Shown here: in pieces, positions 6,807-50,588 of the stretch
Layout: each line of letters opens with the position of its first letter
How positions within the stretch are numbered: the first letter of the stretch is position 1
Source of the DNA: an uncultured Gammaproteobacteria bacterium
Lineage (GTDB): Bacteria > Patescibacteriota > Patescibacteriia > UBA9934 > GWF2-40-263
Assembly: GCA_964374035.1 (NCBI GenBank)
Contig: CAYJWY010000002.1
Span: 1-50,588 of the forward strand
Length of the DNA stretch: 50,588 bases
Direction: 5' to 3'
Notes under the pieces: generated by a model
Database searches by the model: none
The model's input: the letters and a program-made list of their open reading frames with translations, nothing else
Told to the model about the DNA's origin: nothing
Program-made: the position numbers and the translations under genes

Positions 6807-6815
6807 CGAACGGTT

Positions 6816-11691: not shown

Positions 11692-11694
11692 GTC

Positions 11695-16134: not shown

Positions 16135-16248
16135 ACGTTCAATGTTACGTGGGTATGATAGGCGCTTTTTTTGAAAAGAGCAATTCCGATTCCGAGGATT
16201 TCTGACACTTCACAGAACGCTGAAGCACATGATACAATCACCAAACTT

Positions 16249-16848
16249 ATGAAATCCAGATTACCCGTGATCACGTTTGTCTTGATTTTGATTGCAACAG
16301 CACTCGCCGTATTTGGATATGTTCGCAATGCTTCGAAGGACCAGGATAACACGGGGGAAATCAACCGTGAGGCCATCCTCTCAGACGCTCGAAAAAGCGG
16401 GCTCATCATGGACGAAACGGAGATTGCCCGAATGGAAAATGCTGTTGTGGAAAAACCTGCAAGTGCGAAATTCATCACGGACGTGAGTCCCTACAAGGAT
16501 CTCACGTTTAATGAATGGCGTTCCGGTGCGCTCGCGGATGTGACGGGCGGAGGCAGTTTCGGACTTGCCCATTCGCGGTTTGCAAATGGCACGTACACAC
16601 TGGTCTCAATAATGGGAGGGCTCTTACCTGTGAGCGATAACGCCTTTTATGAGGGTTGGCTTGTTAAAAGAGGTGACACGCCGCGCATGATAAGCATTGG
16701 ACCAGTTGTTACACTCGACGAACGTGCTTTTTCCATTTTGACAGCCAATGAAGATTTGACCTCATTCGATTTTTTTGTTCTGACCCTTGAAACAAACGAC
16801 GCAAATCCGAAGCCGGGAAAACATATTCTCGAGGGAACGCTTCAGTAG
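16249..16848 (+). CDS. Membrane-anchored protein with an anti-sigma-K (RskA) C-terminal-like domain
   Basis: The ATG at 16249 gives MKSRLPVITFVLILIATALAVFG (TM anchor). The C-terminus FYEGWLVKRGD...FFVLTLETNDANPKPGKHILEG resembles the RskA extracytoplasmic domain. The track ORF starts at a TTG at 16171. A TGATACAAT extended -10 lies at 16230-16238. Confidence 0.5.
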   Translation: MKSRLPVITFVLILIATALAVFGYVRNASKDQDNTGEINREAILSDARKSGLIMDETEIARMENAVVEKPASAKFITDVSPYKDLTFNEWRSGALADVTGGGSFGLAHSRFANGTYTLVSIMGGLLPVSDNAFYEGWLVKRGDTPRMISIGPVVTLDERAFSILTANEDLTSFDFFVLTLETNDANPKPGKHILEGTLQ

Positions 16849-21762: not shown

Positions 21763-22553
21763 GTGGTTGCGAGACGAAAATTTGCCACAAGATATCCCAC
21801 GCCGTGCGGTGCTTCATAGGAAAGAATTTCCGGACGAACATGCATGCGTTCAAGGATGCCGAAAAAAATGAGGAGCGGACGATAGGCACACTCAGATGAT
21901 TCTTTGACTACCTTCGAAGAAATTTTTAACAACTTTGCACTCGAAACATTTTTGACCGCCTCAAGAACCGCATCATCAAACACGCGGCCTTCTTTTTTGA
22001 ATCCAACGGGAGCGTCCGATGTGAGCGCGTGCGACAAATCGCCAGAGGCAATCACGGCGATGCGTTTTGCGGAATCCGCAAAGAGTTCCTTCAAGATGCG
22101 GCCGAATGCGAGATGCATCTTTGTATCAAGTCCACTGTAAACAATGGGAACAATCTTCGTGTTCAGTTTTTTGGTTAACAAAAGCAGTGGAACACCTGGA
22201 CCATATTCCAGCGTTGCGTTCGAGGTGAAGGTACACGCGACGTTCTCTGTACGCATCGTTCGACGCAACAATGCCGCGAGTTCAAGATCCGGTTTGAATT
22301 CCTTCGTCGTCGCGTGATCCCCAAATTGCGCAAGCGAGACGTGATAGCTCTCGTGCAAGTTCACGGCAAACGCGTCTTGGTGTATATCACTGTGCGATGC
22401 AATCGTAACGATGACATCCGGTTTCGCGAGTTCGAGAGCCTCAGCTAATCCTGCCATCGCTTCGAGCGTGTCATCAAAATCATGGTAACGATCTTTACTG
22501 ATCGATTCGATGAGAAGCGGGGAATGCGGAACAAACGCGGAGAAGACAATCAT
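21759..22553 (-). CDS. LigB/class III extradiol dioxygenase-fold (Memo-like) protein
   Basis: MIVFSAFVPHSPLL... and IASHSD. Size and pattern are typical of this fold. The call is from memory of the family only. Confidence 0.45.
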   Translation of the reverse strand: MIVFSAFVPHSPLLIESISKDRYHDFDDTLEAMAGLAEALELAKPDVIVTIASHSDIHQDAFAVNLHESYHVSLAQFGDHATTKEFKPDLELAALLRRTMRTENVACTFTSNATLEYGPGVPLLLLTKKLNTKIVPIVYSGLDTKMHLAFGRILKELFADSAKRIAVIASGDLSHALTSDAPVGFKKEGRVFDDAVLEAVKNVSSAKLLKISSKVVKESSECAYRPLLIFFGILERMHVRPEILSYEAPHGVGYLVANFRLATT

Positions 22554-23965
22554 AGGCCGGCGGTGGTTAGTTCAGAGATCTCCTCTTGTGGAATCAACGT
22601 TGAGACAGGATCACCCAGCGGACTCAACAAGACAGAGCGTTCGTTGGTCCAGATGATTTGATTCCACTTCCATCCATACGAAAGAAACGTAACCTCATCG
22701 ACAATGGGATGTCTGAGACCGTCGGCGATCACAAAGACATCCGGTGAACCCACGACCGCAACGAGCGTTCCGTCAGGGAAGGTGAGTGGATCAGCCGTTG
22801 CATAGGCGTCGAGATCTGCGGAGGCGACGGGAAAAATTTCGGAAGGGATTTTATAAGCTTCCAGCAATTGCTTGGACATGATCGGATGCTTCTTGCCGTT
22901 CTTAACGAAGAACACGCCGCCTGTTGATTTGTTTTGCAAGAGTGCGCCTTGTGGATACACGTCGCTGGTCGTAATGGGTTCTCCTTCACGAAACACTTCG
23001 AGATCTGTCCAGTCGACATCAATGACTTCATCTGGATCGTAGCCAAGTTTACGAAACGCCTCCGGAGTGCTGAATCCTCGGCGTGTGTCGTCAACGATCA
23101 GGTACACCGTTCCGCGAGGCGAGCGTAAGAGCGAATAATTTGGGAAGGCAATGGGTGTGCCGATCGGATAGAGTTCGAGTTGCGATGGCGTGGCTTGCAC
23201 AACTTGATGCTCATTGAATCGACTCTGGAATGCCGCGCGTGACTGGATGGGACGACGTACGCCATGTTGTATGAGCCAGATGCCACCCGATGTTGAATCT
23301 TGCAGTAAGGATCCGGTGAGATAGTTACGCGTAAACCAACGCGTCCAAATCGTGACGAAGTTTTTGTTTCCGTGCAGGTGTGGTGTGTAGGTGTACAGCG
23401 CGCTGGTGACCTTGTTTACAGGAACCACAACGGTTCCGTCGATGAGCGTTGCTCTGCCCGGACCAACACCTGACTCGGTGAATCCACGACGCGTGAGATC
23501 GACGAGATAGTTTTGTCGGATACGTTGCGCGGCGTAATAGACTTGTTTTCCGAATCCTTTAAATTTTTGAATGCGTGGATCCGACTTTGCGCAATCGTCG
23601 CACACGCTGTAGCCCATCGCCCAATCGAGTTGATCTTGACTTGGCGCGTCGTCTTCCACAAGGCTTTGTTCTCGTTGCAACAGGACGAGGAGAAATTTTG
23701 GGTTCAGTTGAAACGCTTGTGCGGCGTCCCAAATGATTTGTGATGCGGGTACGCGCAAACCGTTGACATCTTCTGTGACGAGCGAGCCAAGATAGCCACG
23801 CGTGAGAAATTGATTCAGTTCTGTACGTGTCATCGCGGATGCATCAAAAAATTCTTCGTCGGAAAGTAATTCGTGGGGATTAAAAACGACGTCCGCCAAG
23901 CCAGCCGACGTCGAAATCGGGGAAAGAAGCAGGATAAAAATAACAAGCGGGACGAGCTGTTTCAT
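22550..23965 (-). CDS. Secreted hypothetical protein with four internal ~25-aa repeats
   Basis: Signal peptide MKQLVPLVIFILLLSPISTSA. Repeats: GGIWLIQHGVRRPIQS, GTVYLIVDDTRRGFSTPEAF, GGVFFVKNGKKHPIMSKQLL, DVFVIADGLRHPIVDEVTF. Confidence 0.65.
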   Translation of the reverse strand: MKQLVPLVIFILLLSPISTSAGLADVVFNPHELLSDEEFFDASAMTRTELNQFLTRGYLGSLVTEDVNGLRVPASQIIWDAAQAFQLNPKFLLVLLQREQSLVEDDAPSQDQLDWAMGYSVCDDCAKSDPRIQKFKGFGKQVYYAAQRIRQNYLVDLTRRGFTESGVGPGRATLIDGTVVVPVNKVTSALYTYTPHLHGNKNFVTIWTRWFTRNYLTGSLLQDSTSGGIWLIQHGVRRPIQSRAAFQSRFNEHQVVQATPSQLELYPIGTPIAFPNYSLLRSPRGTVYLIVDDTRRGFSTPEAFRKLGYDPDEVIDVDWTDLEVFREGEPITTSDVYPQGALLQNKSTGGVFFVKNGKKHPIMSKQLLEAYKIPSEIFPVASADLDAYATADPLTFPDGTLVAVVGSPDVFVIADGLRHPIVDEVTFLSYGWKWNQIIWTNERSVLLSPLGDPVSTLIPQEEISELTTAGL

Positions 23966-27644: not shown

Positions 27645-29098
27645 CAAGATTTCCGCCGTCGCCCACAGGCTTTCTTCATGTGGGTTCGCTCAGAACGGCG
27701 CTCTACAACTACTTGCTTGCTCGCAAACACGGCGGCAAGTTCATGATCCGTGTCGAGGACACGGACCGCGAGCGACTCGTTGAAGGTGCGGTCGAGGGTT
27801 TGATTCGCGTACTGGAAGTCATGGGACTCGACTACGATGAGGGACCGATCGTTGTCGATGGAAAACTGTCAGAAAAAGGGGAACATGGTCCATACACGCA
27901 ATCGGCGCGACTCGACATCTATCGGCGCTACGTCGACATCCTTATCAATGCCGGGCATGCCTATTACTGTTTTTGCTCGAAGGAGCGACTCGAATCAGTG
28001 CGAACACAACAACAGCTCGCAAAACTTCCGACCAAATACGATCGAACATGTTGCAAACGTTCCGATGCAGACGTCGGCTCGAAACTTGAAAGCGGTGAGG
28101 CGCACGTGATTCGCATGAGAATTCCGGAAGGGAAGACAACATTTCACGATGAGATTCGCGGTTCCATTTCGATCGATCACAACGAAATCGACGATCAGGT
28201 CCTCATGAAATCAGATGGATTCCCAACCTACCATCTCGCCGTGGTTGTCGACGATCATCTCATGGGCGTCACGCATGTTGTTCGCGGCGAGGAATGGATC
28301 TCATCGGTTCCCAAACACATCATGCTTTATCAGTGGTTTCAGTTTCCCTTGCCTGTCTATGCTCATCTGCCACTCATCTTGAACGCAGACAAATCAAAAC
28401 TCTCGAAGCGTCAAGGTGATGTTGCGGTCGAGGATTATCTAAAAAAGGGTTACTTGCCCGAGGCACTGATCAATTTTGTCGCGCTTCTGGGATTTAATCC
28501 AACAGGCGATCGTGAAATTTATAGCAAACAGGAGCTCACGGAGGCCTTTGATCTTCAGAAAATCAACAAATCAGGCGCTGTCTTCGACATCACAAAGCTT
28601 AACTGGATGAATGCTCAATACATCAAACATCTGTCGCATGAACAGCTCGTTCATGCTTGCAGAGCATTTGTTTTGCAAAACACCATTGATGACGAATTAC
28701 TTTCAAAAATCGTTTTCGTCGAACGGGGACGTATGGAGCGTCTTGACGAAATCAATGCAAGAATTCAGCCCTACCTTCACCTTGCCGTCTATGAACCCTC
28801 AATCGTTGTGTGGAAAAAGTCCGATGTTGACGACGCAAAGATCCAGTTAGAAGGCCTTCTTGAGTTGATCCGTGGACTCGCGGATGATGTGATGGAATCA
28901 CTTGTGTTGATTGAAGGTGCGATAAAGGAGTATATTGAGAGTAAACATTTACAAAATGGCAATGTGTTATGGCCATTGCGTAGCGCGCTCAGCGGTTGTG
29001 TGCAATCCGCAAGCCCCTTTGAACTTCTCTGGGTTCTTGGAAAAGCGGAATCGCTAGCTCGAATCACGTTTGCCATCAATCTTCTTGCAAAAAAATGA
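27617..29098 (+). CDS. gltX: Glutamate--tRNA ligase
   Basis: RFPPSPTGFLHVGSLRTALYNY (HIGH-type motif) and KLSKR (KMSKS motif). Confidence 0.93.
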   Translation: METTHKQVVTRFPPSPTGFLHVGSLRTALYNYLLARKHGGKFMIRVEDTDRERLVEGAVEGLIRVLEVMGLDYDEGPIVVDGKLSEKGEHGPYTQSARLDIYRRYVDILINAGHAYYCFCSKERLESVRTQQQLAKLPTKYDRTCCKRSDADVGSKLESGEAHVIRMRIPEGKTTFHDEIRGSISIDHNEIDDQVLMKSDGFPTYHLAVVVDDHLMGVTHVVRGEEWISSVPKHIMLYQWFQFPLPVYAHLPLILNADKSKLSKRQGDVAVEDYLKKGYLPEALINFVALLGFNPTGDREIYSKQELTEAFDLQKINKSGAVFDITKLNWMNAQYIKHLSHEQLVHACRAFVLQNTIDDELLSKIVFVERGRMERLDEINARIQPYLHLAVYEPSIVVWKKSDVDDAKIQLEGLLELIRGLADDVMESLVLIEGAIKEYIESKHLQNGNVLWPLRSALSGCVQSASPFELLWVLGKAESLARITFAINLLAKK

Positions 29099-30306
29099 GG
29101 ATATTCAACTTTCATCGATATACGGCAATGGTTCTTGTGATCATGCTTTTTCTCGTAAGCATTCCATTTGGAATTGTTCGGGCTGATAAGATGAATCGTT
29201 CTGACGACATCAATGCCCTCAATCAAACGATCGAGGAGAAAAAGGGGAGTATTGAACAAATCGAGCGACAAATTGAGGAATACGAGAAAAAAATCAAAAA
29301 AAAGTCATCAGAAAAAATTTCGCTTATAATGGAACTTGAGTTGATTCAAAACAGAATCGCAAAAACAGAACTTGATATTGAACAAACAAATACCGAGGTT
29401 GAGCTGGTTTATGCCCAGTTGCGTCTGCTTGAAAAAGAGCTTGAGAAGATTGAAGTAAACATCGATCAGAGCCGCGAACATATTTCCGGTATTCTTAGAG
29501 AAATTCAGATCAACGATCATGCCGTTCCGCTACAAATTTTGTTCGCTACGGAGTCGTTTTCTCAATTTTTTGATCAAGTCGACCAACTTGAAACGATCAA
29601 CGCCGACTTGCAAACAGCCATAAAAACAATGAAGGCATCGCGTGCCATGTTGGAGGAAAAAAAGACATCGCAAGAAGCGAAGTTTGGTCAACTCAATGCG
29701 TTGCAAATAAGCCTTGAGCGAGAGATTGATGTCCTGAATAACTCAACAAAAGCCAAAGAAATCCTGATTTCGCAAACACAAAAATCAGAGGCGGAGTTTC
29801 AGGTCTTCCTGCGTGAATTGAAACAGGAACAGCAGTATATCGATCAACAAATCAATGCTCTTCAATTGGAGATTGAAGATAAGCTGTCCGCATCAGATGA
29901 AGTAGGGGATAGCAGTGTCCTTTCCTGGCCGATGGATACCAACAGGGGTGTGAGCGCTTATTTCCAGGATCCAACGTACCCGTTTCGCTATCTCTTTGAA
30001 CACTCCGGCATCGATCTTCCGGCGAGTACCGGTACACCGGTCAAGGCTGTCGCTCCCGGCTATGTCGCCTGGACAAAAAAAGGTCGTCAGTACGGAAATT
30101 ATGTCATGATCATTCACGCAAACGGTGTTGCCACGTTGTATGCGCATTTATCACGCATTGACGTGCAAGCAGATGAATTCGTTTCCAGAGGCAAGATCAT
30201 TGGCGGCGTTGGAAGCACCGGGCTTTCAACAGGACCTCACCTGCACCTTGAGGTGCGTAAAAACGGCATTCCTACCAACCCACTCAATTACCTTATTGCC
30301 CGATAG
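29095..30306 (+). CDS. M23-family metallopeptidase with long N-terminal coiled coil (EnvC-like)
   Basis: HSGIDLPA, HANGVATLYAHLS, GPHLHLEVRKNG. ATGA overlap with gltX. Confidence 0.88.
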   Translation: MRIFNFHRYTAMVLVIMLFLVSIPFGIVRADKMNRSDDINALNQTIEEKKGSIEQIERQIEEYEKKIKKKSSEKISLIMELELIQNRIAKTELDIEQTNTEVELVYAQLRLLEKELEKIEVNIDQSREHISGILREIQINDHAVPLQILFATESFSQFFDQVDQLETINADLQTAIKTMKASRAMLEEKKTSQEAKFGQLNALQISLEREIDVLNNSTKAKEILISQTQKSEAEFQVFLRELKQEQQYIDQQINALQLEIEDKLSASDEVGDSSVLSWPMDTNRGVSAYFQDPTYPFRYLFEHSGIDLPASTGTPVKAVAPGYVAWTKKGRQYGNYVMIIHANGVATLYAHLSRIDVQADEFVSRGKIIGGVGSTGLSTGPHLHLEVRKNGIPTNPLNYLIAR

Positions 30307-30307
30307 T

Positions 30308-30514
30308 ATGAATCTTGAAAACATCATCAAAGGAATAGGATGGGTATTTACATTGACGCCCATTGTCGTCTTTATCGGAATAGGCGTTGTGATGATCAAA
30401 GGAGCGATGAAGGACGATGAGTTGGTTCGTTCGCTTGTCCTGTTGGCAATCGGGATTTTCTTCATCGGTGTCATCTTGCTTCTGCTCATCTATCTCACAC
30501 GCCTCTTTACCTGA
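30308..30514 (+). CDS. Hypothetical small membrane protein (2 TM)
   Basis: The ATG at 30308 gives MNLENIIKGIGWVFTLTPIVVFIGIGVVM...LLLLIYLTRLFT. It starts 2 nt after the M23 stop. Confidence 0.45.
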   Translation: MNLENIIKGIGWVFTLTPIVVFIGIGVVMIKGAMKDDELVRSLVLLAIGIFFIGVILLLLIYLTRLFT

Positions 30515-30985: not shown

Positions 30986-31810
30986 TCACTGGAAATACAC
31001 ATGATCTCCGAATCGAAGGTCAATGTAGTTGAGACGTGCCACGTCGGGAACTTTGTCGCGCAAGATGATTTGAAGGCGCTCAGCCTGCGCAACAATGTCC
31101 CCTGTTGCGTCGAAGAGGATCTCATAACCCTGCTGAGTCTCGACGCCCATCCACTTGCCTGCCACACGATCGATCTGTGTGTTCTGAATCGCGATCTGTT
31201 GTTTGGTGAGTTGCTCGTGAAACAAAAGAATGTTTTCGACTTCTTGCTTGGTCATCACACGCGCACCGATTGACACAGGTGTGTTGTTGCGATCAACGAA
31301 GATGGGAAGGTCCAACATGTCTTCTGTGGCAACGTCTCGAACAATGGTTCCCTCCAAATCAACGACGTATTGTTTTGTTGCTGTTTGCCAAATAACGATC
31401 GAATCCTTTTCAACAACACCGATGTGCAGTGTTTGATCTTCAAGCCGAAGTGTGAGCGATTCAAACGCGAATGTTGACCTCAGCTGTTTTTGTAAATCTT
31501 GCTCCTGATACACAAAACGATTTCTGTGATCGAAAACTAAAAGGAACGGCTTGTCGAAATACCTTCGCAACACGTCTTCGAAGACCTTGGTTGAAAAGTA
31601 CTTTGTTCCCTGAACATCCACGTTACGAATCGTAAAGTGATCATTGAACAAAAAACGTGTCGTGAGAATCGTGAGAACAACAAGACCTGCGATGGATAGC
31701 ATCGCTATCTGACGATAGTTGAGTTCTTTCACCTGAAAATACGGATTCCGAAATTTTTGGGAACGGTAAAGTTTCTTTTGAGCATTTCGAAAGTGATTGC
31801 GTTTGGCCAT
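30986..31810 (-). CDS. ftsQ: Cell division protein FtsQ/DivIB (POTRA domain)
   Basis: N-terminal TM segment, then the POTRA-like FTIRNVDVQGTKYFSTKVFEDVL. Confidence 0.7.
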   Translation of the reverse strand: MAKRNHFRNAQKKLYRSQKFRNPYFQVKELNYRQIAMLSIAGLVVLTILTTRFLFNDHFTIRNVDVQGTKYFSTKVFEDVLRRYFDKPFLLVFDHRNRFVYQEQDLQKQLRSTFAFESLTLRLEDQTLHIGVVEKDSIVIWQTATKQYVVDLEGTIVRDVATEDMLDLPIFVDRNNTPVSIGARVMTKQEVENILLFHEQLTKQQIAIQNTQIDRVAGKWMGVETQQGYEILFDATGDIVAQAERLQIILRDKVPDVARLNYIDLRFGDHVYFQ

Positions 31811-38359: not shown

Positions 38360-38890
38360 TTAGTAGGTTTTACGTGGTTCCGGAAGCAGTCCCAGGACAT
38401 TTAATAATGCTCGAATACGCGTTGCACACGGATACAGGAGCGTCATAAAAATCACCAGAAGCAGTATGCGCAATACCGACTCTTGCAAGAATATCAGCCA
38501 ATGAACAGGTGTCTGAAACAACTGTTGGAAGCTCCGCATGAGCGCCTGTGTCGCAAGGATCCCAACAGAGCCCGTTAATGCACAACTGAGAACACCGTAG
38601 TAGGATCGATTGGAAAAAAGATGTTTCGCTGTGACACTAACCACGATTCCGCCGACGGTGTAGGCAACAAGCTCAGAAATGGAGAACCACCCGTAAAAGG
38701 AGTCCAGCAGTGCCCCGTGTATCGGAAGCCACCAGATAAAAACATGCGCACCTTGATGCTGTACGAGGTAGACGCATACGGCAAGCACGAAGGGTGTGAG
38801 AGCGAGAAATCCCGGCAAGGATCGAAAAAAACTCACCTCGATGAGCGAGAAGACAATCATGATTGCTATCCAAAGCAGGAGTCGAATCAT
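38360..38890 (-). CDS. mreD: Rod shape-determining protein MreD
   Basis: Polytopic 176-aa membrane protein. ATGA overlap with mreC and the conserved operon position. Confidence 0.7.
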   Translation of the reverse strand: MIRLLLWIAIMIVFSLIEVSFFRSLPGFLALTPFVLAVCVYLVQHQGAHVFIWWLPIHGALLDSFYGWFSISELVAYTVGGIVVSVTAKHLFSNRSYYGVLSCALTGSVGILATQALMRSFQQLFQTPVHWLIFLQESVLRILLLVIFMTLLYPCATRIRALLNVLGLLPEPRKTY

Positions 38891-41619: not shown

Positions 41620-44571
41620 CTACTGCCTGAACTCACAAATATCCGCATAGTCGCAATACGAACAGTGGAAACCCGGCGTTGGTTCGAACGTGCTTTCGCG
41701 AATCGCGGAGACGCGGTCCTCGATGGTTTCTCGTAGCTTGTCGAGATCAATTTCAGATCCAAGAAACGACACCGTCGAATTATCCTCGAGATAGTGAAAC
41801 GTCAGTTTCCTTGGCTCGAGTCCAAGGGCTTCTTTCGAGGCAATCTGGTAGAGAAATAATTGTTCCTTATCTTCGCGCGACAAGTCTTCAAGACGTTTGG
41901 GCGAACCGGTTTTGTAGTCGATAATCTCAATGCCGCCCTCAACGGCATCAATGCGGTCAATACGACCTTTGAGAACTACCGGACCAAATCGCAGAGTAAA
42001 ACCGACTTCCAGGAAGCGTGGCTCGGGCGTGCGTGTGTCGAATGATCGATAAAACGAACGTAATTGTTGCTTGCCTCGCTCACGATAGGCTTCGCGTTGA
42101 CGATCGTCGATGTACCAATCGTCCTGCCAATTCTTTTGATACAGATCGAGGAGTTCGTCGATCGAAACAGGGAAATCTACGATTGATTCTTGAGACATCG
42201 GTGGGGAAAATAAACGTTCCTGTTGCGACCCCTGGCGTTCTATCCACAGTTCAAAAAAATGTTGCAATGTTGCATGCATGGTCTTTCCAAACGAGAGCGT
42301 CCACTTGCCAAAGACAGGCACGTGCAAAATGTGGCCAAACTTGTACTGCAACGGACAGGTTCGAAACGCGGCGAGTTGCGTAAATGAAAATTGTTTCGGC
42401 AATGCATGGGTGGTGACGTAGGGATCGGTCTGATTGTCGAGCACAGAATCCGTTGTATCGGTATCCAACACATTTAATTCGATCGTTTCTACCACGTGCG
42501 GTTTTTGATAACCCAATTCATCTAAAAACCGCGAGAGTTTTCTCGACCGCGCTCCCCCATAATCATCGGCCGATGTAACATACAATCCGTCTTTCGCGCG
42601 CGTCATTGCGACATAAAACAAGCGACGTTCCTCCTGAAGATGTTGTTCGCTGTCGTGCTCTGGTTGGGGATCAAGCTCGCGCGGAAGTGGAATCGCGTCC
42701 GTGCGTCGTTGCGTCGGAAATTTTCGGTCGATGAGATTCACAACAAAGACATGAGCAAACTCAAGGCCTTTGGCCGCGTGAACGGTCATAATACGAACCA
42801 AATCCGGGCCGGATTCAAGATCAACACTGAGCGAACCCTCCTCGCCCGCATCACGTTCGTGACCAAACTCTTCTAGAAACGTATGCAGTCCTTGGTGATC
42901 GCTTCGCGCCTCAAACGCCTTCATGCGTTCGAAGAGTTGCTGTAGGTAGCGAAAGTTCTCCTGCTTCTGTCGTTCGTTCAGTCCATTGATGTATTCAACA
43001 TAGCCCGTCTCTCGAACCGCACGAACAAACAACTCCGAGACGCGGCGCTTGCTCGCCTCGGTGCGGATTTCCGCGAGCATGGATAGCATGTGTTGAATCT
43101 TTGCGAGCTCGTCCGAGGCGATTTCAGAAAACGTTTGCGCGACCTGCGCAGACTCATACAACGACTTGCCTTTTCGTGCGGAGAGTTGATTCAACTCAGC
43201 AATCGTTATGGGATGAACGCCCCAATGTGGCATGGTGAGTACGCGGTACATGCTTGGACTGTGGTGGGGCTGATCGATGACGCGCAGAAGCGCAATGCTG
43301 TCGAGCACCACCGGCTTGGTATACAACCCTGACAACGCCAAAAATTGATACGGAATCGCATGGCGCTCAAGCGACGTTGCGAAGTCTTCACCAGCCGCAT
43401 TTGATCGAACAAGAATGGCGAAGTCGTTCCAGGTAAGGTTCTTATCCTGTTCTTTCAAGTCAAGAATTTTCTGCACGACTTGAGCAACTTCTTCCTCAAG
43501 TGTTCGCGCGTGCAAGTGATCGATGACTCCCAACGTCTCACGCTGTGACTCGAGCCGCTTCGACAGCGACGTGTCGCGCGCTTCGAGCCGATTTGGATTA
43601 TTGTTTTGAATGAACGCATAGGCACGGTCTAGAATCGCCTGCCCCGATCGATAATTCTTATTGAGCACGATCTTCCGTGCACTGGGATAGTCCTCGTTAA
43701 AACGCAAAATGTTCACGAGCGACGCGCCTCGAAATTTATAAATCGCCTGATCGTCATCGCCAACAACCGTGAGATTGGGCGCGTCGAATCCGGCAATCAG
43801 CGTGATCAAGTCATACTGCGCCTGATTCGTATCTTGAAATTCATCGACGAGGATGTATGGGTAGTGGGCTTTTATCTTCTGTAAAATCTTCGGTCGTTCA
43901 CTCAGGAGTCGTTTCGTATACAAAATGAGATCACCAAAGTCGAGCGAGTCGTGCTCGAGTAGAATCGACTGATAGGTCTGATACGCTCGAGCAAGCTCAT
44001 CGATCCGCGCGACCTCGGTCAGGACGTCTTGGTCGCCATGCATCGAATCCTCATCCGCTTTCTTCCCCTCAGCAAAGTCAACATAGGCCTGTGGATGAAT
44101 TCCCGCGTCTTTTGCTCGAGAAAAATGCGTAAGGAATGATCGCAGATACTTGGTTGGGTTGCCAAGCGGTCGATAGTAGTCAAGCTCGAAGCGGTCAAAC
44201 TGTGTGCGAACGAGCAACCAAGCCTCGAGCTCGGTCACAAGCTTAAAATCTCGCGAAAGGCCGATCTCCGCGCCGTAGTCGCGAAGTAAGCGTTCGCAAA
44301 ATGCGTGAAACGTGGAGATCTGTAAATCCGTATAGCCGTACGGCAACAGCATATCGACACGCTCCTCCATCTCACCAGCAGCCTTATCCGTAAACGTAAG
44401 CGCGAGAACATTCTCGGGTTTGCAAAGTCCTTGTTCAATGAACCAAGCGATACGCCGCGTAATCACGGTTGTCTTCCCTGTTCCCGCCCCCGCGACGATC
44501 ATAAGCGGACCACCGACATGGGTGACGGCTTGGATTTGTTCGGAGTTGAGGTCGCTCAGAAGATCGGACAT
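41620..44571 (-). CDS. UvrD/PcrA/AddA-type SF1 helicase fused to a C-terminal PD-(D/E)XK nuclease with a Cas4/AddB-like Cys cluster
   Basis: Walker A AGAGTGKTTVIT and DEFQDTN, plus further SF1 motifs. Nuclease GRIDRID...IIDYKTG. Cys residues CPLQYKF and CSYCDYADIC. Confidence 0.88.
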   Translation of the reverse strand: MSDLLSDLNSEQIQAVTHVGGPLMIVAGAGTGKTTVITRRIAWFIEQGLCKPENVLALTFTDKAAGEMEERVDMLLPYGYTDLQISTFHAFCERLLRDYGAEIGLSRDFKLVTELEAWLLVRTQFDRFELDYYRPLGNPTKYLRSFLTHFSRAKDAGIHPQAYVDFAEGKKADEDSMHGDQDVLTEVARIDELARAYQTYQSILLEHDSLDFGDLILYTKRLLSERPKILQKIKAHYPYILVDEFQDTNQAQYDLITLIAGFDAPNLTVVGDDDQAIYKFRGASLVNILRFNEDYPSARKIVLNKNYRSGQAILDRAYAFIQNNNPNRLEARDTSLSKRLESQRETLGVIDHLHARTLEEEVAQVVQKILDLKEQDKNLTWNDFAILVRSNAAGEDFATSLERHAIPYQFLALSGLYTKPVVLDSIALLRVIDQPHHSPSMYRVLTMPHWGVHPITIAELNQLSARKGKSLYESAQVAQTFSEIASDELAKIQHMLSMLAEIRTEASKRRVSELFVRAVRETGYVEYINGLNERQKQENFRYLQQLFERMKAFEARSDHQGLHTFLEEFGHERDAGEEGSLSVDLESGPDLVRIMTVHAAKGLEFAHVFVVNLIDRKFPTQRRTDAIPLPRELDPQPEHDSEQHLQEERRLFYVAMTRAKDGLYVTSADDYGGARSRKLSRFLDELGYQKPHVVETIELNVLDTDTTDSVLDNQTDPYVTTHALPKQFSFTQLAAFRTCPLQYKFGHILHVPVFGKWTLSFGKTMHATLQHFFELWIERQGSQQERLFSPPMSQESIVDFPVSIDELLDLYQKNWQDDWYIDDRQREAYRERGKQQLRSFYRSFDTRTPEPRFLEVGFTLRFGPVVLKGRIDRIDAVEGGIEIIDYKTGSPKRLEDLSREDKEQLFLYQIASKEALGLEPRKLTFHYLEDNSTVSFLGSEIDLDKLRETIEDRVSAIRESTFEPTPGFHCSYCDYADICEFRQ

Positions 44572-44580
44572 ATCAACGAC

Positions 44581-44589
44581 ATTTTAGCA
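44581..44589 (-). promoter_or_regulatory. Extended -10 promoter element (TGCTAAAAT) of the helicase gene
   Basis: The minus strand reads TGcTAAAAT. The ATG is 9 nt downstream with no SD, so a leaderless transcript is likely. The -35 position falls inside the palindrome. Confidence 0.45.
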
Positions 44590-44595
44590 CATGCA

Positions 44596-44652
44596 CCGCA
44601 ACCTGGTTGCCGTGAACGCAACCTGGTTGCGTTCACGGCAACCAGGTTGCGG
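44596..44652. repeat. Perfect 57-nt palindrome containing three 13-bp palindromic sites GCAACCWGGTTGC spaced 20 bp apart
   Basis: 28 of 28 positions pair around centre 44624. The sites are 44598-44610, 44618-44630 and 44638-44650. Confidence 0.95.
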
Positions 44653-44717
44653 GATGTTGGCGATTGACAATTTGGCTGAAGGAAGGATGTCAAATCCACT
44701 TCCCAACCTCTCAAACG

Positions 44718-44747
44718 AAAAAGACGCCGTACCTGTGTACTGGCGTC
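44718..44747 (-). terminator. Rho-independent terminator of the 522-aa island gene
   Basis: The minus strand reads GACGCC-13 nt-GGCGTC followed by TTTTT. Confidence 0.65.
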
Positions 44748-44791
44748 GAGGAGTGAGACTCACGATACGTCCTTCACAGCGACGTGTCGGT

Positions 44792-46360
44792 CTAGGTGGT
44801 CTCGTTGTTGGGCGTGGTGGTCGAGGTCCCGGACGTCGATTCGACCTGGTTGCCGATCCCGCCTGCGTCCGGCTCCGTCGTCTGGACCTTGACGGGGTCG
44901 GTGTAGCCGGCCTTCTCGGCGACCTGGTAGAGCAGGCGCTCGCGCAGGGCGACGTGGAAGCGATTGGCGTGGTTATACTCGCCGATGTGCTTGGCGATCC
45001 ACGCGGAGGCGACATCATTCGGGTTGAGCGTCTCGATCGTGACGTCGAGGCGGTTGCCGGAAAGCAGTTCCTCGATCGTCGGTCGAGCGTATCGACGCAT
45101 CTTCGAGAGCGTGCTGTCGATCGCGTCGTACCAAAGCCGCTCGGCACGCTTGAGCGCGTCCTTGGTGAACGGCCCGAGCTGGGCGCGGATGGCGTCGGGA
45201 TTCATCCCGGGCAGGATGAGCTGTTCGCGGATGGCCCGCATGAAGAGCGGGTTCTTGGAATCGAACGGCTTGCTCAGGCACCTGCGAACGAACCGCTCGG
45301 CCTCCTCGGGGTCGTAGCGCTCGAGCTTCTGGTCGAGGACGTCGAAGGGGTTGACGTTGAAGGTGATCCCGCTCAGATCGACCTTGGTCGACGCGCTCAG
45401 ATCGACCTCGCTTCGCAGGCCCATGTAGACCGCGTCGATGCGATTTTCACGCTCCGTGATCGTGAAGACGCACTCGCCGAAGGGGTAGAACTGCTTCCCC
45501 TTCTTCGCGGCCTCCTTTGAGATTCGATCGACGTCGCTCTCCTTGCAGACCAGGCGTGGAGTCTGAGAGCTCGGGTGGAGAACCACCTGCTTGTCGAAGT
45601 ACGTGTCGATCATGCAGATCGTCGTCCTGTCAAGCTCTCGAATTTTCAGGTAGCGTGGTGCATGGAACATGAGCTGTGTGCCCTGACGTCCGACGCCCCT
45701 TACGATCGGCTCGATTCTAGGCCAGTCCTTGTGAAAGGACTTCGTACGGCGGGCCTGATCGACCATGTTCTGCCAGCGCTGAACCAGCTCGAGGTCGGCG
45801 AGGCCCAGCGGAAGGAACTTGTACGGGCCCTTTCGCTTGGGTGCGTACAGAACGCCGTGGAACGCACCTCCCGAGACCACCGTGTTGTCCGGCAGTCGCT
45901 TGAGGAATTCAATGCCGACGTTCAGCAGAGGCACGATCTCGATCTCTCCGTACTGCTCGTAGCCTTCGACCACCTGTCGCGCAATGGGAGCCATATCTTC
46001 GTAGCCCTCGGTGAAGCGCTTCCTGGGAACGAACGTCACGCTGATGATCAGCGGAATGTTCGTCGGCTCGCCATGGGCGTCGGGAACCATTACTCGGCGA
46101 TTGCGCCAGTGCTCACGCTGACGCTGTGCCTCAGCCTTGACATTGATGCGTCGGCGCCGTGCCTCTTCCGGGGTCGACATGGTGGTCTCTGCCGCCACGC
46201 GGTCGAGATCATTGGCGGTCGAGATCACGGCCGGGGCCGCGTGCCAGACGACCATCTCGCCGGTGGTGACCGGTTCGCTGACGGCGGAGCCTTCCTCTTG
46301 AACGAAGGTGATTCCGAGGCGCCTAATGAGGTCCCCGGGTCCGAACTCTTCACTGGACAT
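44792..46360 (-). CDS. Hypothetical 522-aa protein encoded in the high-GC island (no recognisable family)
   Basis: Longest ORF in the region, with G/C-rich third codon positions. AAGGAG lies 8 nt upstream of the ATG at 46360. The track's extension to 46537 crosses the promoter region. Confidence 0.75.
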   Translation of the reverse strand: MSSEEFGPGDLIRRLGITFVQEEGSAVSEPVTTGEMVVWHAAPAVISTANDLDRVAAETTMSTPEEARRRRINVKAEAQRQREHWRNRRVMVPDAHGEPTNIPLIISVTFVPRKRFTEGYEDMAPIARQVVEGYEQYGEIEIVPLLNVGIEFLKRLPDNTVVSGGAFHGVLYAPKRKGPYKFLPLGLADLELVQRWQNMVDQARRTKSFHKDWPRIEPIVRGVGRQGTQLMFHAPRYLKIRELDRTTICMIDTYFDKQVVLHPSSQTPRLVCKESDVDRISKEAAKKGKQFYPFGECVFTITERENRIDAVYMGLRSEVDLSASTKVDLSGITFNVNPFDVLDQKLERYDPEEAERFVRRCLSKPFDSKNPLFMRAIREQLILPGMNPDAIRAQLGPFTKDALKRAERLWYDAIDSTLSKMRRYARPTIEELLSGNRLDVTIETLNPNDVASAWIAKHIGEYNHANRFHVALRERLLYQVAEKAGYTDPVKVQTTEPDAGGIGNQVESTSGTSTTTPNNETT

Positions 46361-46460
46361 GAAACGTTCTCCTTGCCTTATCCGATGTTGCTGTTTTCTG
46401 TCAAAGCATCTTGAAACTCTCACGCAAAGTCGTGTAGAACGACTCGCACTTGAGTCGTGG

Positions 46461-46489
46461 ACAATACACCAGAAACCTTGAAATGTCAA
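46461..46489 (-). promoter_or_regulatory. Sigma70-type promoter for the 522-aa gene
   Basis: The minus strand reads TTGACA-17 nt-TATTGT. It is followed by the ACGACTC/GAGTCGT hairpin (46439-46458) and AGTCGTG direct repeats in a ~95-nt leader. Confidence 0.5.
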
Positions 46490-46555
46490 GCTGTTCGATG
46501 ATTTTCCAGCCATTCGATCGTGTCGCATCTTTGGCAATTTTCTTGATAATTTTCA

Positions 46556-46584
46556 TTGACAAATTCAGGAAACCGTGCTATTTT
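46556..46584 (+). promoter_or_regulatory. Sigma70-type promoter for the 322-aa gene
   Basis: TTGACA-17 nt-TATTTT, back to back with the minus-strand promoter. Confidence 0.5.
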
Positions 46585-46627
46585 GATCGCTCCAAACCTC
46601 ACCCAAATCGCGTTCAGGAGGACACAA

Positions 46628-47596
46628 ATGGACAGAGTCAGTGCCTTGAAAGCGTTGTTTGGAGACAACGCCAATACGACAGCATCGGCGGAAGCGGTTC
46701 TTGCGCTCGGATCAGATCCACGACCCACCCCCGAGGAGGCCAGGCAACTCGGACAGCTGGGACAAGAAGGTAATCGAATTCTCAACAAGGCATGCGCATT
46801 CGCAGAGCGCCCTGAATTCGAATCCGAAGATATGGAGGGTGGAATCGCGCAGGCGATTCTGATCGATTACGCGGCTGATCTGAGCCGTGTTGAATCGACT
46901 CCGCAAGAGAGACAGGTTGCGCAAACGCCGCTCCTGGCGATTATGGATCCAGAACCGGCTCCGGAATCGAAGCCTCACCCGGATTTCATTACAATCCCTC
47001 AAGAGCTGACGCCGGCAAAGGTGGACTTGAACCATCCACCTCTCGACATCGAAGGAAACAAGGATATGGCTCGATGGAATCGAAAGAGGAGCCAGAGCGA
47101 CTCGGATCAAGATGATCCGGTGCAAAAAAAAGTTGTTGCACAGTTGGCTCAGCCGATCGAAGGTCACAAGGATGACCGTCGGAAACAAGATGAGGTCAAA
47201 GTCAAGCCGCCGCCTCCTCCGCCCAAGCCGCCCGAGACTCGCGAGAGCGATTGTCTGATCACGCCGCAGGGCCACGCGATCATTGTCACGCGCAAGTGGT
47301 ACATCTCGCGCACGGCAACGGAATCGTACTACAGGCGCATTCGCGATGGGCAGGTGGTGGGAGCAACACCCGAGGCACTGCACGCTGGGATGGAGGCCAG
47401 GCGCGTCGTCGCGAGCTGGGAACAAAACCAGAAGGACATCCTCAGTTCTCAAACGTCGAGCGGGACGGACAAGAGCTACGCGACGTACTTTCTGAAGTTG
47501 CTCGACGCGCTCAAGCGTAATCACCTCACGCAGGAGCACTACCGCGAGCTCTTCGTCGACGGAAAGGGGCCACACTCGCCACACGGCAAACAGTAG
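46628..47596 (+). CDS. Hypothetical 322-aa protein, largely low-complexity/acidic, with a PPPPPPKPPE linker and a ~110-aa C-terminal globular-looking region
   Basis: AGGAGG lies 6 nt upstream of the ATG at 46628. The track's start at 46556 is the TTG of the -35 box. Confidence 0.7.
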   Translation: MDRVSALKALFGDNANTTASAEAVLALGSDPRPTPEEARQLGQLGQEGNRILNKACAFAERPEFESEDMEGGIAQAILIDYAADLSRVESTPQERQVAQTPLLAIMDPEPAPESKPHPDFITIPQELTPAKVDLNHPPLDIEGNKDMARWNRKRSQSDSDQDDPVQKKVVAQLAQPIEGHKDDRRKQDEVKVKPPPPPPKPPETRESDCLITPQGHAIIVTRKWYISRTATESYYRRIRDGQVVGATPEALHAGMEARRVVASWEQNQKDILSSQTSSGTDKSYATYFLKLLDALKRNHLTQEHYRELFVDGKGPHSPHGKQ

Positions 47597-47599
47597 GAC

Positions 47600-47626
47600 A
47601 AAAAATCTGGCTCCGGAAACCAGATT
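47600..47626 (-). terminator. Terminator of tatD
   Basis: The minus strand reads AATCTGG-9 nt-CCAGATT followed by TTTTTT. Confidence 0.6.
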
Positions 47627-47630
47627 CTCA

Positions 47631-47660
47631 GCGACACCGAATGTTCGATGTCGCTTTTTT
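47631..47660 (+). terminator. Terminator of the 322-aa island gene
   Basis: GCGACA-12 nt-TGTCGC followed by TTTTTT. The T-run overlaps the tatD stop codon. Confidence 0.6.
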
Positions 47661-48543
47661 ATTTGAGCTGAAAAAGCTGAATGGCATTTTCTGTGGTCTG
47701 TCGCTCCACGTCTTGTAAGGACATGGATTTAATTTCAGCGATTTTTTCGGTAACGTATTTTACATACATCGGCTCGTTGCGCGCACCTCGAAACGGGATT
47801 GGTGTGAGGTACGGTGAATCTGTTTCAACGAGGATGCGCTCGATGGGGAGTTCACGCGCGGCGTATTGCAACGGTGACAGGCCATCGACCAAGACGTCTG
47901 TCTTTCTTGGTGGAAACGTAATGACGCCACTGAAAGAAATGAAAAAACCAAGATCGACAAATCGCTTTGCTTCCTCGTACGTCCCCGAAAAACAATGCAT
48001 CACTCCCCTTTTTGGAAGCATCCCATCGTCGATGAGTTGCGTAAGAAGATCTGCTTGCTCTGCGTACGCATCGCGACAGTGAATAATGATCGGCAGATTT
48101 GTTTCCGTTGCGAGATTTGCGTGCTGAATGAATGTCTCTCGCTGAATTCGGATGACCTCGTCTCGATCGGCCTGTTCTGGAATGCGATAATAGTCGAGAC
48201 CCGTCTCTCCGATGGCCACGCACTTTGGATGTTGTGCTAACGTTTTGAAATATGCGTAATCGAATGATTCTGCTCTCGTATGAATTTGTGGCGTCGCTTG
48301 CGCTTCGGGCGGAAGTTCATCGTCATCGTAAAACGATTGTTGCGTGAGATGATTTGGATGCAGTCCCACCGCCGCCCACAGACCCTCGTAACGCTGAGCG
48401 ACATCGAGGCCGTTTCGACTTGTATCTTTTTGTGTGCCCACCGTAATCATCCGTACGCCGTTTGCAAGTGTACGTCTTATCACGTCATCCATATCCTCTG
48501 TGTATGCGTTGAAATGCACGTGGCAGTGAGTGTCAATCAACAT
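47659..48543 (-). CDS. tatD: TatD-family metal-dependent DNase/hydrolase
   Basis: MLIDTHCHVHF, conserved His/Glu/Asp pattern (GETGLDY, HCRDA, HCFSG, ETDSPYL). metG-tatD synteny. Confidence 0.9.
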   Translation of the reverse strand: MLIDTHCHVHFNAYTEDMDDVIRRTLANGVRMITVGTQKDTSRNGLDVAQRYEGLWAAVGLHPNHLTQQSFYDDDELPPEAQATPQIHTRAESFDYAYFKTLAQHPKCVAIGETGLDYYRIPEQADRDEVIRIQRETFIQHANLATETNLPIIIHCRDAYAEQADLLTQLIDDGMLPKRGVMHCFSGTYEEAKRFVDLGFFISFSGVITFPPRKTDVLVDGLSPLQYAARELPIERILVETDSPYLTPIPFRGARNEPMYVKYVTEKIAEIKSMSLQDVERQTTENAIQLFQLK

Positions 48544-48545
48544 AA

Positions 48546-49073
48546 TTACGATGGCGTGCTCTGCTCAGTCGCTTCCTTTGCAGTCCTGAGCCCCTCTGGA
48601 AGCAGGACTTGCAGTGCGGAAACCATGGCGACTAAATAGTTTGCCACCTCAGAGGTTTGCAGTGCGGCAAGTAATGTATCCTTTGGCAAGACTTGCATGG
48701 CATAAAAAATCACCACACCGATGACCACAAGGCCCTCGACAAGACCAAAAATCGCACCAAGAAATCGATCAATCGTTTTTGCAAACGGAATAAAGGAGAG
48801 GACATCCCAAATCTTTCCAAAAAACCAAAAGAGAATACCTATCAAGCGCGAAATGATAAAAAACACGATGATAAACAAAACGATTCTTCCAAACTGACCC
48901 CCGCCAAACATAAAACCGAAGCGATCAAATACCGGGTCGATGAGGCGTGTGGATAAAAAAATGCCTATCATCGAGCCAATCAGGCTTCCAAGGGTATGAA
49001 CGAATCCAAAGAAAAAACCAAACAATATGAACGCCCCGATGATCACCAAAAGAACGATATCGATGAATCCCAT
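48546..49073 (-). CDS. cvpA: CvpA-family membrane protein
   Basis: MGFIDIVLLVIIGAFILFGFFFGFVHTLGSLIGSMIG and four TM segments. Confidence 0.75.
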   Translation of the reverse strand: MGFIDIVLLVIIGAFILFGFFFGFVHTLGSLIGSMIGIFLSTRLIDPVFDRFGFMFGGGQFGRIVLFIIVFFIISRLIGILFWFFGKIWDVLSFIPFAKTIDRFLGAIFGLVEGLVVIGVVIFYAMQVLPKDTLLAALQTSEVANYLVAMVSALQVLLPEGLRTAKEATEQSTPS

Positions 49074-49075: not shown

Positions 49076-50518
49076 TTAGTCACGACGAGGGAAAAGCGGC
49101 TCGCCTGTTTGTATGATTGTACCATAGCGTCGCAGAATTTCCTCGGCTGTTTGTGGAATGATTGGTCTAAGCGATCGGCCGACAAAACGGATCATTTCTG
49201 CGAGTTCTGAGAGAACAGCTTTTGCGCCCACCTCGTCTTCCTTCACGAGTTTGAACGGTGCTTTCTTGTCGACAAGATCATTCGCGCGCGCGACGACCTC
49301 GAACACCTCGTCGACATACGCACGCAAATCGTAGTTGTGCATGTGGTTTTCCATGCGTTGTTCCTTCTCGCTCCAATCGATCTCGAATGCATCGAGACTT
49401 CCCGCAAAGTACTTCACCGACATCGCGGCGACGCGACTCACAAGATTACCAAGTTGGTTCGCGAGTTCCGCGAAGCGTTCTTCCATGCGTGTGTTTGAAA
49501 AGTCCCCGTCACCATGCGAAGGAATCTCGCGCAAGAAAAAGTAACGCACCGCATCAACGCCGTATTCTGAGACGAGGTCTTTTGGGTGAATGACGTTACC
49601 AAGAGACTTGGACATCTTCTCCCCTTCGACGGTGATATAGCCGTGAACGAAAAGCTCGTGCGGCAGTGGGACACCTGCGGACAACAACATCGCGGGCCAA
49701 TAGACGGCGTGGAAACGTATGATTCCTTTGCCGATGACGTGGGCGCGTGTGTCGTTGTCAACCCAAAACTTTTTGTAGAGTTCCGAGTCGTCGGCATAAC
49801 CGAGTCCCGTGATGTAATTCGAAAGCGCATCGAACCAGACATACATCACTTGCGAGTCGTCACCGGGAACAGGAACGCCCCAATGCGCCGCGCGCTCTTG
49901 CGATCGTGAAATCGAAAAGTCCTCGAGTCCGCTTCGAACGAAACTAAGCACTTCGTTCTTGCGCGCCTCGGGAACGATGCGCAGTGTATCACTCTCAATG
50001 AGTTTCTCAAGCTGTGCTTGATAGTTTGATAATTTAAAAAAGTAATTTTTCTCCTCGATCGTCTCGAGTTGCGTCTTGTGCTCAGGACAAATACCATCGG
50101 GCACTTCCTTCGTCGTGTAAAACGATTCACACCCAACGCAGTACAATCCGCGATACGTCTTTTGATAAATATCCTCCGGCTTACACGCGACCCAAAGCTT
50201 CTGCGCGCCGCGCATGTGTCGCTCTTCGCGCGTGCGAATGAAGCCGTCAAACGAAACGTTCAGAACGTTCATCAAACGCTTGAACTCGTCGGTGTGTCGC
50301 AGTACAAACGCATCCACATCCTCCCCCGCTTCCTCAGCGGCCCGAACATTCTTCAGACTATTCTCGTCCGAGCCCGCAAGCATGTACACCTCATCGTTCC
50401 CGAGGCGACCTCGCGCATAACGCGTAATCGCATCCGTAAAAACATACTCCATGGCGTGGCCAATATGCGGATCGCCGTTGACGTACGGAATAGCATTGGT
50501 GATAAAAAATCGTTTCAT
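49076..50518 (-). CDS. metG: Methionine--tRNA ligase (short form)
   Basis: FFITNAIPYVNGDPHIGHA (HIGH), Zn-knuckle-like CVGCESFY...CPEH, and KMSKSLGN. I chose the start at MKRFF (50518). Confidence 0.93.
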   Translation of the reverse strand: MKRFFITNAIPYVNGDPHIGHAMEYVFTDAITRYARGRLGNDEVYMLAGSDENSLKNVRAAEEAGEDVDAFVLRHTDEFKRLMNVLNVSFDGFIRTREERHMRGAQKLWVACKPEDIYQKTYRGLYCVGCESFYTTKEVPDGICPEHKTQLETIEEKNYFFKLSNYQAQLEKLIESDTLRIVPEARKNEVLSFVRSGLEDFSISRSQERAAHWGVPVPGDDSQVMYVWFDALSNYITGLGYADDSELYKKFWVDNDTRAHVIGKGIIRFHAVYWPAMLLSAGVPLPHELFVHGYITVEGEKMSKSLGNVIHPKDLVSEYGVDAVRYFFLREIPSHGDGDFSNTRMEERFAELANQLGNLVSRVAAMSVKYFAGSLDAFEIDWSEKEQRMENHMHNYDLRAYVDEVFEVVARANDLVDKKAPFKLVKEDEVGAKAVLSELAEMIRFVGRSLRPIIPQTAEEILRRYGTIIQTGEPLFPRRD

Positions 50519-50588
50519 AACGGTCTGTTTTGCAGTGGGGGGGGGGCGGGCTGAGGGGTTATCGGACACTGAGAAACCCATACACCCC

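Follow-up and report, generated by a model that had tools for sequence, protein, structure and literature searches.

Genes A and B form a divergently transcribed pair on a 50,588-nt stretch of contig CAYJWY010000002.1 (the window, positions 1 to 50,588), which is part of the chromosome of a member of Candidatus Uhrbacteria within the candidate phyla radiation (CPR). Gene A (44792-46360, minus strand, ATG start at 46360) encodes 522 amino acids (aa), and its divergent partner gene B (46628-47596, plus strand) encodes 322 aa. Both lie in a GC-rich block between tatD and a UvrD/PD-(D/E)XK helicase gene. An earlier note on this DNA took the block for an inserted, recently acquired island. That part of its account is not borne out, as a homologous A/B pair is present at each of the related Uhrbacteria loci that were recovered; its description of a self-contained, divergently transcribed two-gene module is supported. 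The pair is very probably a conserved resident of the chromosome and not a recent island. Synteny and the rough proportionality of divergence point to a vertically inherited gene pair that would be specific to the Uhrbacteria lineage and held in a fixed chromosomal slot.

The pair constitutes an uncharacterised two-protein module of a CPR lineage, found in 10 of the 10 related Uhrbacteria loci recovered, and combines (i) confident predicted folds without known relatives, (ii) unusually fast evolution, and (iii) conserved strong promoters. Orphan, lineage-specific families are very common in CPR genomes, and modules such as this one are candidates for lineage-specific CPR biology, which is largely unknown. 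The block is also a counter-example for the interpretation of composition. Most island finders would call such a GC-deviant block of ORFan genes horizontally acquired; here a sharp "island" in GC, in G+C content at third codon positions (GC3), and in tetranucleotide content has long resided at a syntenic site, and its composition belongs to the gene family itself.

Distribution and Synteny

An exhaustive HMMER search with protein A retrieved 42 cluster representatives (50% identity clusters, query included), 27 of them at E < 1e-10; word-indexed searches with A, B, and the family profile returned the query only. The relatives of protein A are 390-632 aa long and align over their full length. 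For the homologues in the same chromosomal slot, identity to protein A is 24-47%, and 73% is reached only between the close relatives L004 and L005. Family members are unannotated or labelled "hypothetical", the only named one being MBT5808523.1, a hypothetical protein of a Candidatus Uhrbacteria bacterium.

Genomic context was recovered for nine further family members. Every recovered A homologue has a divergent B-like open reading frame (ORF) of 290-390 aa without a Pfam match, and, on contigs long enough, the pair adjoins metG-cvpA-tatD in 10 of 10 related contexts examined, in either orientation. A check set beforehand was whether the tatD-helicase spacer is empty in relatives; none is empty, the pair being present in all ten. 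Two Uhrbacteria metagenome-assembled genomes (MAGs) show the arrangement by composition as well, with a GC-rich stretch directly after tatD (0.63-0.65 versus 0.50-0.53 in the surrounding DNA) that holds an ORF of about 550 aa and a divergent ORF of 337 or 382 aa. The other side of the slot is occupied by an ATP-synthase operon, a V-ATPase gene, or the same UvrD/PD-(D/E)XK helicase as in the window. Locus L088 repeats the gene order of the window (tatD / B / A / helicase / DciA / MreB / MreC) but has, following A, a gene of 181 aa and a VWA gene in addition. The pair has one orientation relative to tatD in the window, L088, and L093 and the opposite one in L004, L005, L095, and the P0047 contig.

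Profile searches delimit the family further. An A-family profile from which L004 and L005 were left out gives E = 1e-63 and 4e-56 for their ORFs, and the same profile matches no ORF in the other 78 tatD loci, which are mostly from other lineages. The B profile matches 16 ORFs across the fetched loci, comprising the partner ORF in every locus except L005 and including that of L004, which was not in the profile.

Two loci, L089 and L094, carry a second A paralogue (1028-2800 and 4308-6116, respectively), which is convergent with the first, has GC3 near the host level, and bears a distinct conserved C-terminal extension, FFAKPGS..HQG.LKDGY. The extra genes that separate A from the helicase in L088, the closest relative (11661-13525; an ORF of 181 aa and a VWA-domain gene of 438 aa), are absent from the window and have moderately raised GC3 (0.48 versus about 0.35 in the host). 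The slot therefore gains and loses genes.

Rate of Sequence Change

Proteins A and B diverge far more than their neighbours. Between the window and L088, identity is 73% for the helicase, 69% for TatD, 64% for CvpA, 44% for A, and 32% for B; between L004 and L005 it is 87-90% for the flanking genes, 73% for A, and 45% for B. Overall, A/B divergence roughly follows flank divergence. Substitution rates at nonsynonymous (dN) and synonymous (dS) sites were estimated for the L004/L005 pair by the Nei-Gojobori method (NG86). Gene A has a dN of 0.21 and a dN/dS of 0.28, gene B has a dN of 0.56 and a dN/dS of 0.17 with dS saturated, and the flanks have a dN of 0.06-0.09 and a dN/dS of 0.03-0.06. These ratios indicate that A and B are real, constrained proteins under purifying selection that evolve fast. 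By these estimates, the sequences of A and B are changing several times faster than the neighbouring housekeeping genes. In the same comparison, dS is 0.76 for gene A versus 1.3-2.8 for the flanks. A low value is expected if the synonymous sites of A are constrained, and composition also inflates chance identity.

The window's MetRS gene (49076-50581, minus strand) behaves differently from the other flanking genes. Its product shares only 52-56% identity with the MetRS of four Uhrbacteria relatives, and these four are 73-89% identical to one another. By TatD, CvpA, and the helicase, the window is much closer to L088 (64-73%). The metG of the window may have been replaced or may be fast-evolving.

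Composition and Codon Usage

The earlier note's claim of a GC-rich block holds when computed. The 1-kb windows at 44501-46000 have a GC content of 0.606-0.607, with a maximum of 0.541 elsewhere in the 50.6 kb, and tetranucleotide distance peaks over the same interval (z = 4.8). The GC of gene A is 0.621 (0.62/0.42/0.82 at codon positions 1/2/3) and that of gene B is 0.573, with a GC3 of 0.641. The other genes of the window (n = 34) have a mean GC3 of 0.530 (standard deviation 0.049, maximum 0.645), against which A stands at z = +6.0 and B at +2.2. Of the counts made by hand in that note, those at 44801-44900 (0.68), 47221-47280 (0.683), and 42001-42100 (0.54) are exact, and that at 48701-48800 is corrected to 0.43 from 0.44. 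The A-B spacer (43% GC) and the 3′ flank of gene A (53% GC) resemble other intergenic DNA, and the GC excess is therefore limited to coding sequence.

Gene A has the periodicity GC1 > GC2 << GC3, which identifies its annotated frame as the coding frame. The piles of long ORFs in several frames that had been pointed out are present and are ascribed to the high GC3. TTA, CTA, and TCA are nearly absent among the sense codons of gene A, and long antisense ORFs are an expected by-product; a gene overlapping A is accordingly not postulated.

The codon bias is shared by the orthologues. Across ten genomes in which the flanks have a GC3 of 0.33-0.65, gene A has a GC3 of 0.53-0.93 and always exceeds its host, by 0.16-0.43. 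The GC3 of A correlates with that of the host (Spearman 0.71, p = 0.02, n = 10, not phylogenetically corrected). For gene B, the difference from the host is -0.04 to +0.24. Since the raised GC3 recurs in hosts of such different composition and tracks each of them, it is a property of the family and not a mark of foreign DNA. The signature common to the A orthologues comprises (i) avoidance of A-ending codons (A at four-fold degenerate sites is 0.02-0.16 versus 0.19-0.35 in host genes), (ii) a preference for G over A in Lys, Gln, and Glu codons (0.74-0.92 in most orthologues), and (iii) C usually exceeding G at four-fold sites. In the window, the effective number of codons (Nc) of gene A is 38, versus 44 expected from GC3 alone, and its GC3, about 0.75 at the 5′ end, climbs to reach 0.9-1.0 by the 3′ end; gene B shows the same 5′-to-3′ rise. 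Being strand-specific and confined to the coding sequence, the bias speaks against donor composition and also against plain GC-biased gene conversion. The candidate cause that fits the strand-specific bias best is selection on the transcript or on the translation of gene A.

Another candidate cause, mRNA structure, was tried and rejected, as the folding z-scores of the two halves of A (-1.67 and -1.71) match that of tatD (-1.73). The 5′ untranslated region of gene A is not unusually structured (z = -0.13).

Transcription Signals

Genes A and B share a 267-bp AT-rich control region (46361-46627) with back-to-back promoters, each scoring 10/12 in the promoter scan. The promoter of gene A is TTGACA-17-TATTGT (-35 at 46489-46484 and -10 at 46466-46461, minus strand), and that of gene B is TTGACA-17-TATTTT with a TG before the -10 (-35 at 46556-46561 and -10 at 46579-46584, plus strand). 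The Shine-Dalgarno (SD) sequences, read from the DNA, are AAGGAG for A (46369-46374, minus strand, 8 nt upstream of the start) and AGGAGG for B (46616-46621, plus strand, 6 nt upstream). RNA folding of 44572-44795 places the intrinsic terminator of gene A at 44713-44747 on the minus strand, where a GACGCC...GGCGUC hairpin is followed by UUUUUCGUUU; a consensus terminator scan missed it because its loop is longer than 8 nt.

Downstream of gene B, two terminators converge within 47597-47663. That of tatD (TCTGG-loop-CCAGA + T6, 47600-47624, minus strand) faces that of gene B (AGCGACA-loop-TGTCGCT + T6, 47630-47663, plus strand), whose T-run overlaps the tatD stop codon. The right junction is as tight as had been described, the stop codon of B lying 3 nt from the T-run of the tatD terminator. 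Each gene has its own promoter, SD, and terminator.

The promoters are conserved. In the ten loci compared, whose A-B spacer measures 112-348 bp with 39-48% GC, a perfect TTGACA with 17-nt spacing is directed at A without exception, and a second perfect TTGACA is directed at B in eight; in L089 the match is weaker (CTGACA-16), and the spacer scanned in L093 contains none. The divergent arrangement is kept far better than the protein sequences of A and B. Conservation of the back-to-back promoters indicates that the pair is built for co-ordinated divergent transcription, which is probably strong.

Predicted Structure of A and B

Neither protein belongs to a recognised family, as had been noted from the sequence. 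Protein A has no match in Pfam, PHROGs, PADLOC, or NCBIfam, the 41 family members have no match in Pfam or PHROGs, and sequence-profile searches of the PDB with the A and B families return nothing below E = 0.2. Protein B likewise has no Pfam, PHROG family, PADLOC, NCBIfam, or PDB sequence match. The structure searches that the earlier note had proposed agree with this result, Foldseek giving no significant match for the model of A against the PDB and BFVD and none for B against the PDB.

The AlphaFold (AF2) model of A, built from the family alignment, has a mean predicted local distance difference test score (pLDDT) of 84 and a predicted template modelling score (pTM) of 0.69. It consists of two long N-terminal helices (residues 36-88), a ten-strand beta region (residues 91-184) followed by a helix pair, a strand-strand-strand-strand-helix-strand-strand unit (residues 229-315), and a C-terminal helical domain (residues 338-483). 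This last domain contains most of the conserved motifs (DPFxVLG, NPLY, RPxIEE, DxxAxWI, and SPFHxxLR) and, in the family alignment, the invariant R473. The conserved residues are mostly Pro, aromatic, and Arg and do not form a catalytic constellation. In 40 of the 41 family members there is no transmembrane segment or signal peptide, and the C-terminus of most members is an acidic tail, rich in Pro/Ala/Ser/Thr, with a basic KPKRxRK-like patch after it. A J-domain was considered for residues 336-371, where DPFxVLG...D..NP resembles DYYxxLG...HPD by eye; it was rejected (hhalign probability 3.7%, HPD absent), and none of the 41 members has a DnaJ Pfam match.

Protein B is predicted to have an N-terminal helical domain (residues 1-90, pLDDT ~90) and a C-terminal helical domain (residues 210-311, pLDDT ~90) joined by a disordered linker of about 120 residues (91-208, pLDDT below 50) that is rich in Pro, Ala, and charged residues. 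Two B orthologues add a C-terminal transmembrane helix.

Weak Foldseek matches of A are almost all nucleic-acid binders with an OB fold (oligonucleotide/oligosaccharide-binding), namely bS1, exosome S1 subunits, eIF2-alpha, the N-domains of Asp- and Lys-tRNA synthetases, RPA, SSB, RNase R, and LEF-3.

Relation to Described Families and Elements

OB-fold proteins (bS1/S1-domain proteins, RPA/SSB, and baculovirus LEF-3) are the sole recurring theme among the weak structural matches to the beta-rich middle of A. At residues 229-315, the strand-helix-strand order could be that of an OB barrel, and many family members carry basic C-terminal patches. Protein A differs from these proteins in having no S1, SSB, or tRNA_anti-codon Pfam match, with structural matches at E of at least 0.004 and template modelling scores (TM-scores) of about 0.1, and its N-terminal helices and conserved C-terminal helical domain have no counterpart in OB proteins.

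The pair resembles the lineage-specific "hypothetical protein" families of CPR/Patescibacteria in its restriction to one lineage, its lack of annotation, and its chromosomal housekeeping context. It stands apart from these families by its constant syntenic position, its obligatory divergent partner, and a conserved anomaly of GC3 and codon usage, specific to the gene, that gives it the look of a foreign island. Like a classical genomic island, the block departs locally from its surroundings in GC, GC3, and tetranucleotide content and has sharp borders; it differs from such islands in lying at the same site in all relatives examined, in lacking mobility genes, repeats, and tRNA, and in a composition that co-varies with the host. 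The pair lies outside the known kinds, since neither protein can be placed in a described family or fold. The earlier proposal of a candidate undescribed system stands in this respect, neither protein belonging to any described family, and falls in respect of recent acquisition. A literature search on Uhrbacteria turned up no relevant report.

Proposed Role and Alternative Explanations

A working model can be assembled from these features. Proteins A and B would be co-expressed from their back-to-back, near-consensus promoters and would work jointly in the cytoplasm, forming a binding or scaffold complex without enzymatic activity. Protein A would supply OB-like beta-barrels and the conserved helical domain, and in most family members (not in the window) its acidic linker would end in the basic KPKRxRK-type patch. 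Protein B would supply two small helical domains on a long disordered tether, which may be tail-anchored in the membrane in a few species, and the most likely ligand of the complex would be nucleic acid.

Confidence differs among the parts of this interpretation. The overall reading, a conserved, fast-evolving, lineage-restricted pair with intrinsic codon bias together with the functional proposal, is held as somewhat better than even. The broader functional statement is tentative and well short of even odds: A and B may form an undescribed, Uhrbacteria-specific cytoplasmic complex built on folds without solved or viral relatives, for example a nucleic-acid-binding or architectural module, in which case the conserved, strand-specific avoidance of A-ending codons in gene A would stem from selection peculiar to the synonymous sites of this gene, as distinct from both host codon adaptation and a foreign origin. 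The detailed picture of a cytoplasmic complex with nucleic acid as its most likely ligand is speculative, and a little more doubtful still.

Several observations weigh against the overall reading. For the functional part, the best Foldseek match of A reaches only E = 0.004 (probability 0.41; others have E up to 0.045 and probability at most 0.47) with a TM-score of about 0.1, no nucleic-acid-binding Pfam domain is detected, and the window's A and its closest relatives have a Ser/Thr-rich tail in place of the basic one. For the codon bias, the mRNA folding z of gene A (-1.7) equals that of tatD (-1.7), and the ATP-synthase, Sod, AhpC, MreB, ClpB, and GreA genes located on these contigs look like bulk genes in their codon usage and lack A's signature. 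Host optimal codons are therefore not supported as its cause, nor is a simple "highly expressed gene" explanation of GC3. For inheritance, the case for vertical descent is made from synteny and from divergence roughly in step with that of the flanks, and not from a reconciled phylogeny; MetRS disagrees with TatD, CvpA, and the helicase on which relatives are closest; and alleles may have been replaced by homologous exchange through the conserved flanks.

The slot may instead be a recombination hot spot, a diversifying locus at which alleles are repeatedly exchanged or replaced between Uhrbacteria lineages by homologous recombination in conserved flanks, with GC-biased gene conversion or import from GC-richer relatives raising GC3. 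The very fast protein divergence beside slow flanks, the occurrence of both orientations, the extra paralogues or genes in some genomes, the disagreement of MetRS and TatD on relatedness, and the rise of GC3 toward the outer (3′) ends of A and B speak for it. Gene conversion would be strand-symmetric, however, and the bias follows the coding strand (C over G, T over A, A-ending codons avoided). The immediate flanks (tatD, helicase, and atp genes) show no GC3 rise, and A and B are most alike in the two hosts that are themselves most closely related. The few strain-level single-nucleotide polymorphisms available are uninformative. A hot spot is on balance unlikely.

Codon adaptation of an extremely abundant structural protein, by which ordinary translational selection would produce the GC3 excess, is about equally improbable. 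It is consistent with near-consensus promoters and a strong SD conserved across loci, with the low Nc, with a dS below that of the flanks, and with a slight GC3 rise in Sod, AhpC, and atpE. It does not account for the expressed genes that lack A's codons: the atp genes of L090, for instance, have a C/(C+T) ratio of 0.27 in NNY codons, versus 0.86 for A.

A recently acquired foreign island from a high-GC donor, placed between tatD and the helicase, is very improbable. Of the features by which genomic islands are recognised, the block shows a composition that deviates from the host genome, with anomalies ending sharply at the terminators, and the exact A and B proteins recur only in the same species (word-indexed homology searches and contig matches). 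The homologous pairs in the same slot of every relative, with A diverged to 24-47% identity, imply long residence, so that the block is not absent from the same site in relatives; the GC3 of A tracks each host and not one donor value, and the intergenic parts of the block are host-like in GC. Mobility signatures are likewise lacking. The A/B block has no integrase or transposase domain and no convincing border repeats, domain and repeat searches agreeing here with the earlier note; the window has no tRNA and no Rfam family; and searches of the IMG/VR viral contigs, of GenBank phages, and of PLSDB plasmids bring up no relatives.

An equally remote alternative is a mobile element, domesticated or surviving as a remnant, or else a toxin-antitoxin or defence module; a capsid-like gene with a replication-initiator-like gene from a small integrated virus or plasmid would be one instance. 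The protein sizes (~520 and ~320 aa) and the divergent layout are reminiscent of small single-stranded DNA elements, and B has a weak PHROG "replication initiation" match (E = 0.029). Against this alternative, that match falls in the low-complexity linker (residues 148-277), PHROGs match 0 of 41 A members, PADLOC gives no A or B match to known anti-phage defence systems at E up to 1, BFVD yields no capsid likeness and no match below 1e-3, viral and plasmid collections hold no relatives, no HUH or Walker motif was seen in the earlier note or surfaced in domain searches, and a fixed chromosomal position across a clade is atypical of such elements.

Assembly Support and the Helicase Promoter

The possibility of a chimeric assembly had been raised for both junctions. 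Exact protein A occurs on three contigs assembled from other sequencing runs, with 0-24 mismatches to the window; on one of them, L001, 12 of the 24 mismatches cluster in the contig's last ~25 nt. This contig spans metG, cvpA, tatD, B, and A and so supports the tatD junction independently, reproducing the convergent terminator region. All three contigs, which are Logan assemblies, end at window position 44622/44623, exactly the centre of a 57-nt palindrome. Palindrome centres are typical assembly break points. The helicase-side (left) junction is accordingly supported by the window contig and by synteny in relatives.

The palindrome is perfect (28+1+28) and lies at 44596-44652, between the gene A terminator and the helicase start. 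It is made of three copies of GCAACCWGGTTGC spaced 20 nt (9 motif matches versus 1.3 expected) and begins 7 nt upstream of a conserved extended -10 element, TGCTAAAAT (44581-44589), which is only ~9 nt from the helicase ATG. The position of this element so close to the ATG suggests that the helicase mRNA is near-leaderless. L088 has the same helicase -10 element without the palindrome, and the palindrome motif is found in no other fetched locus except copies of this strain. It is a candidate operator or a candidate recent insertion in the helicase promoter.

Other Features of the Window

The closest TatD genes in the species-representative genome set are from Candidatus Uhrbacteria MAGs (58-59% identity), and the gene content is that of an ordinary CPR chromosome: ABC-F, P-type ATPase, DEAD helicase, Fmt/Def, PriA, ClpB, GluRS, M23 peptidase, and Alr, together with a LysRS-type synthetase, GreA, PBP2, MreC/MreB, the UvrD/PD-(D/E)XK helicase, TatD, CvpA, and MetRS. 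The window's only mobility-type gene, 40 kb from the A/B block, is a 302-aa ORF (3362-4270, plus strand) with an IS200-like Y1 transposase domain (PF01797, E = 5e-13, residues 26-134). A sensory pair, a FecR-domain protein followed by a CHASE2-adenylate/guanylate cyclase, lies amid housekeeping genes at 5214-8786 (plus strand). Sizeable ORFs without a Pfam match are located at 13583-14293, 16171-16848, 22550-23965 (471 aa), 30986-31810, and 38360-38890. The lowest-GC stretch of the window, 28500-30500 (0.415-0.418, tetranucleotide z = 2.3), spans the 3′ end of the GluRS gene and the M23 peptidase gene.

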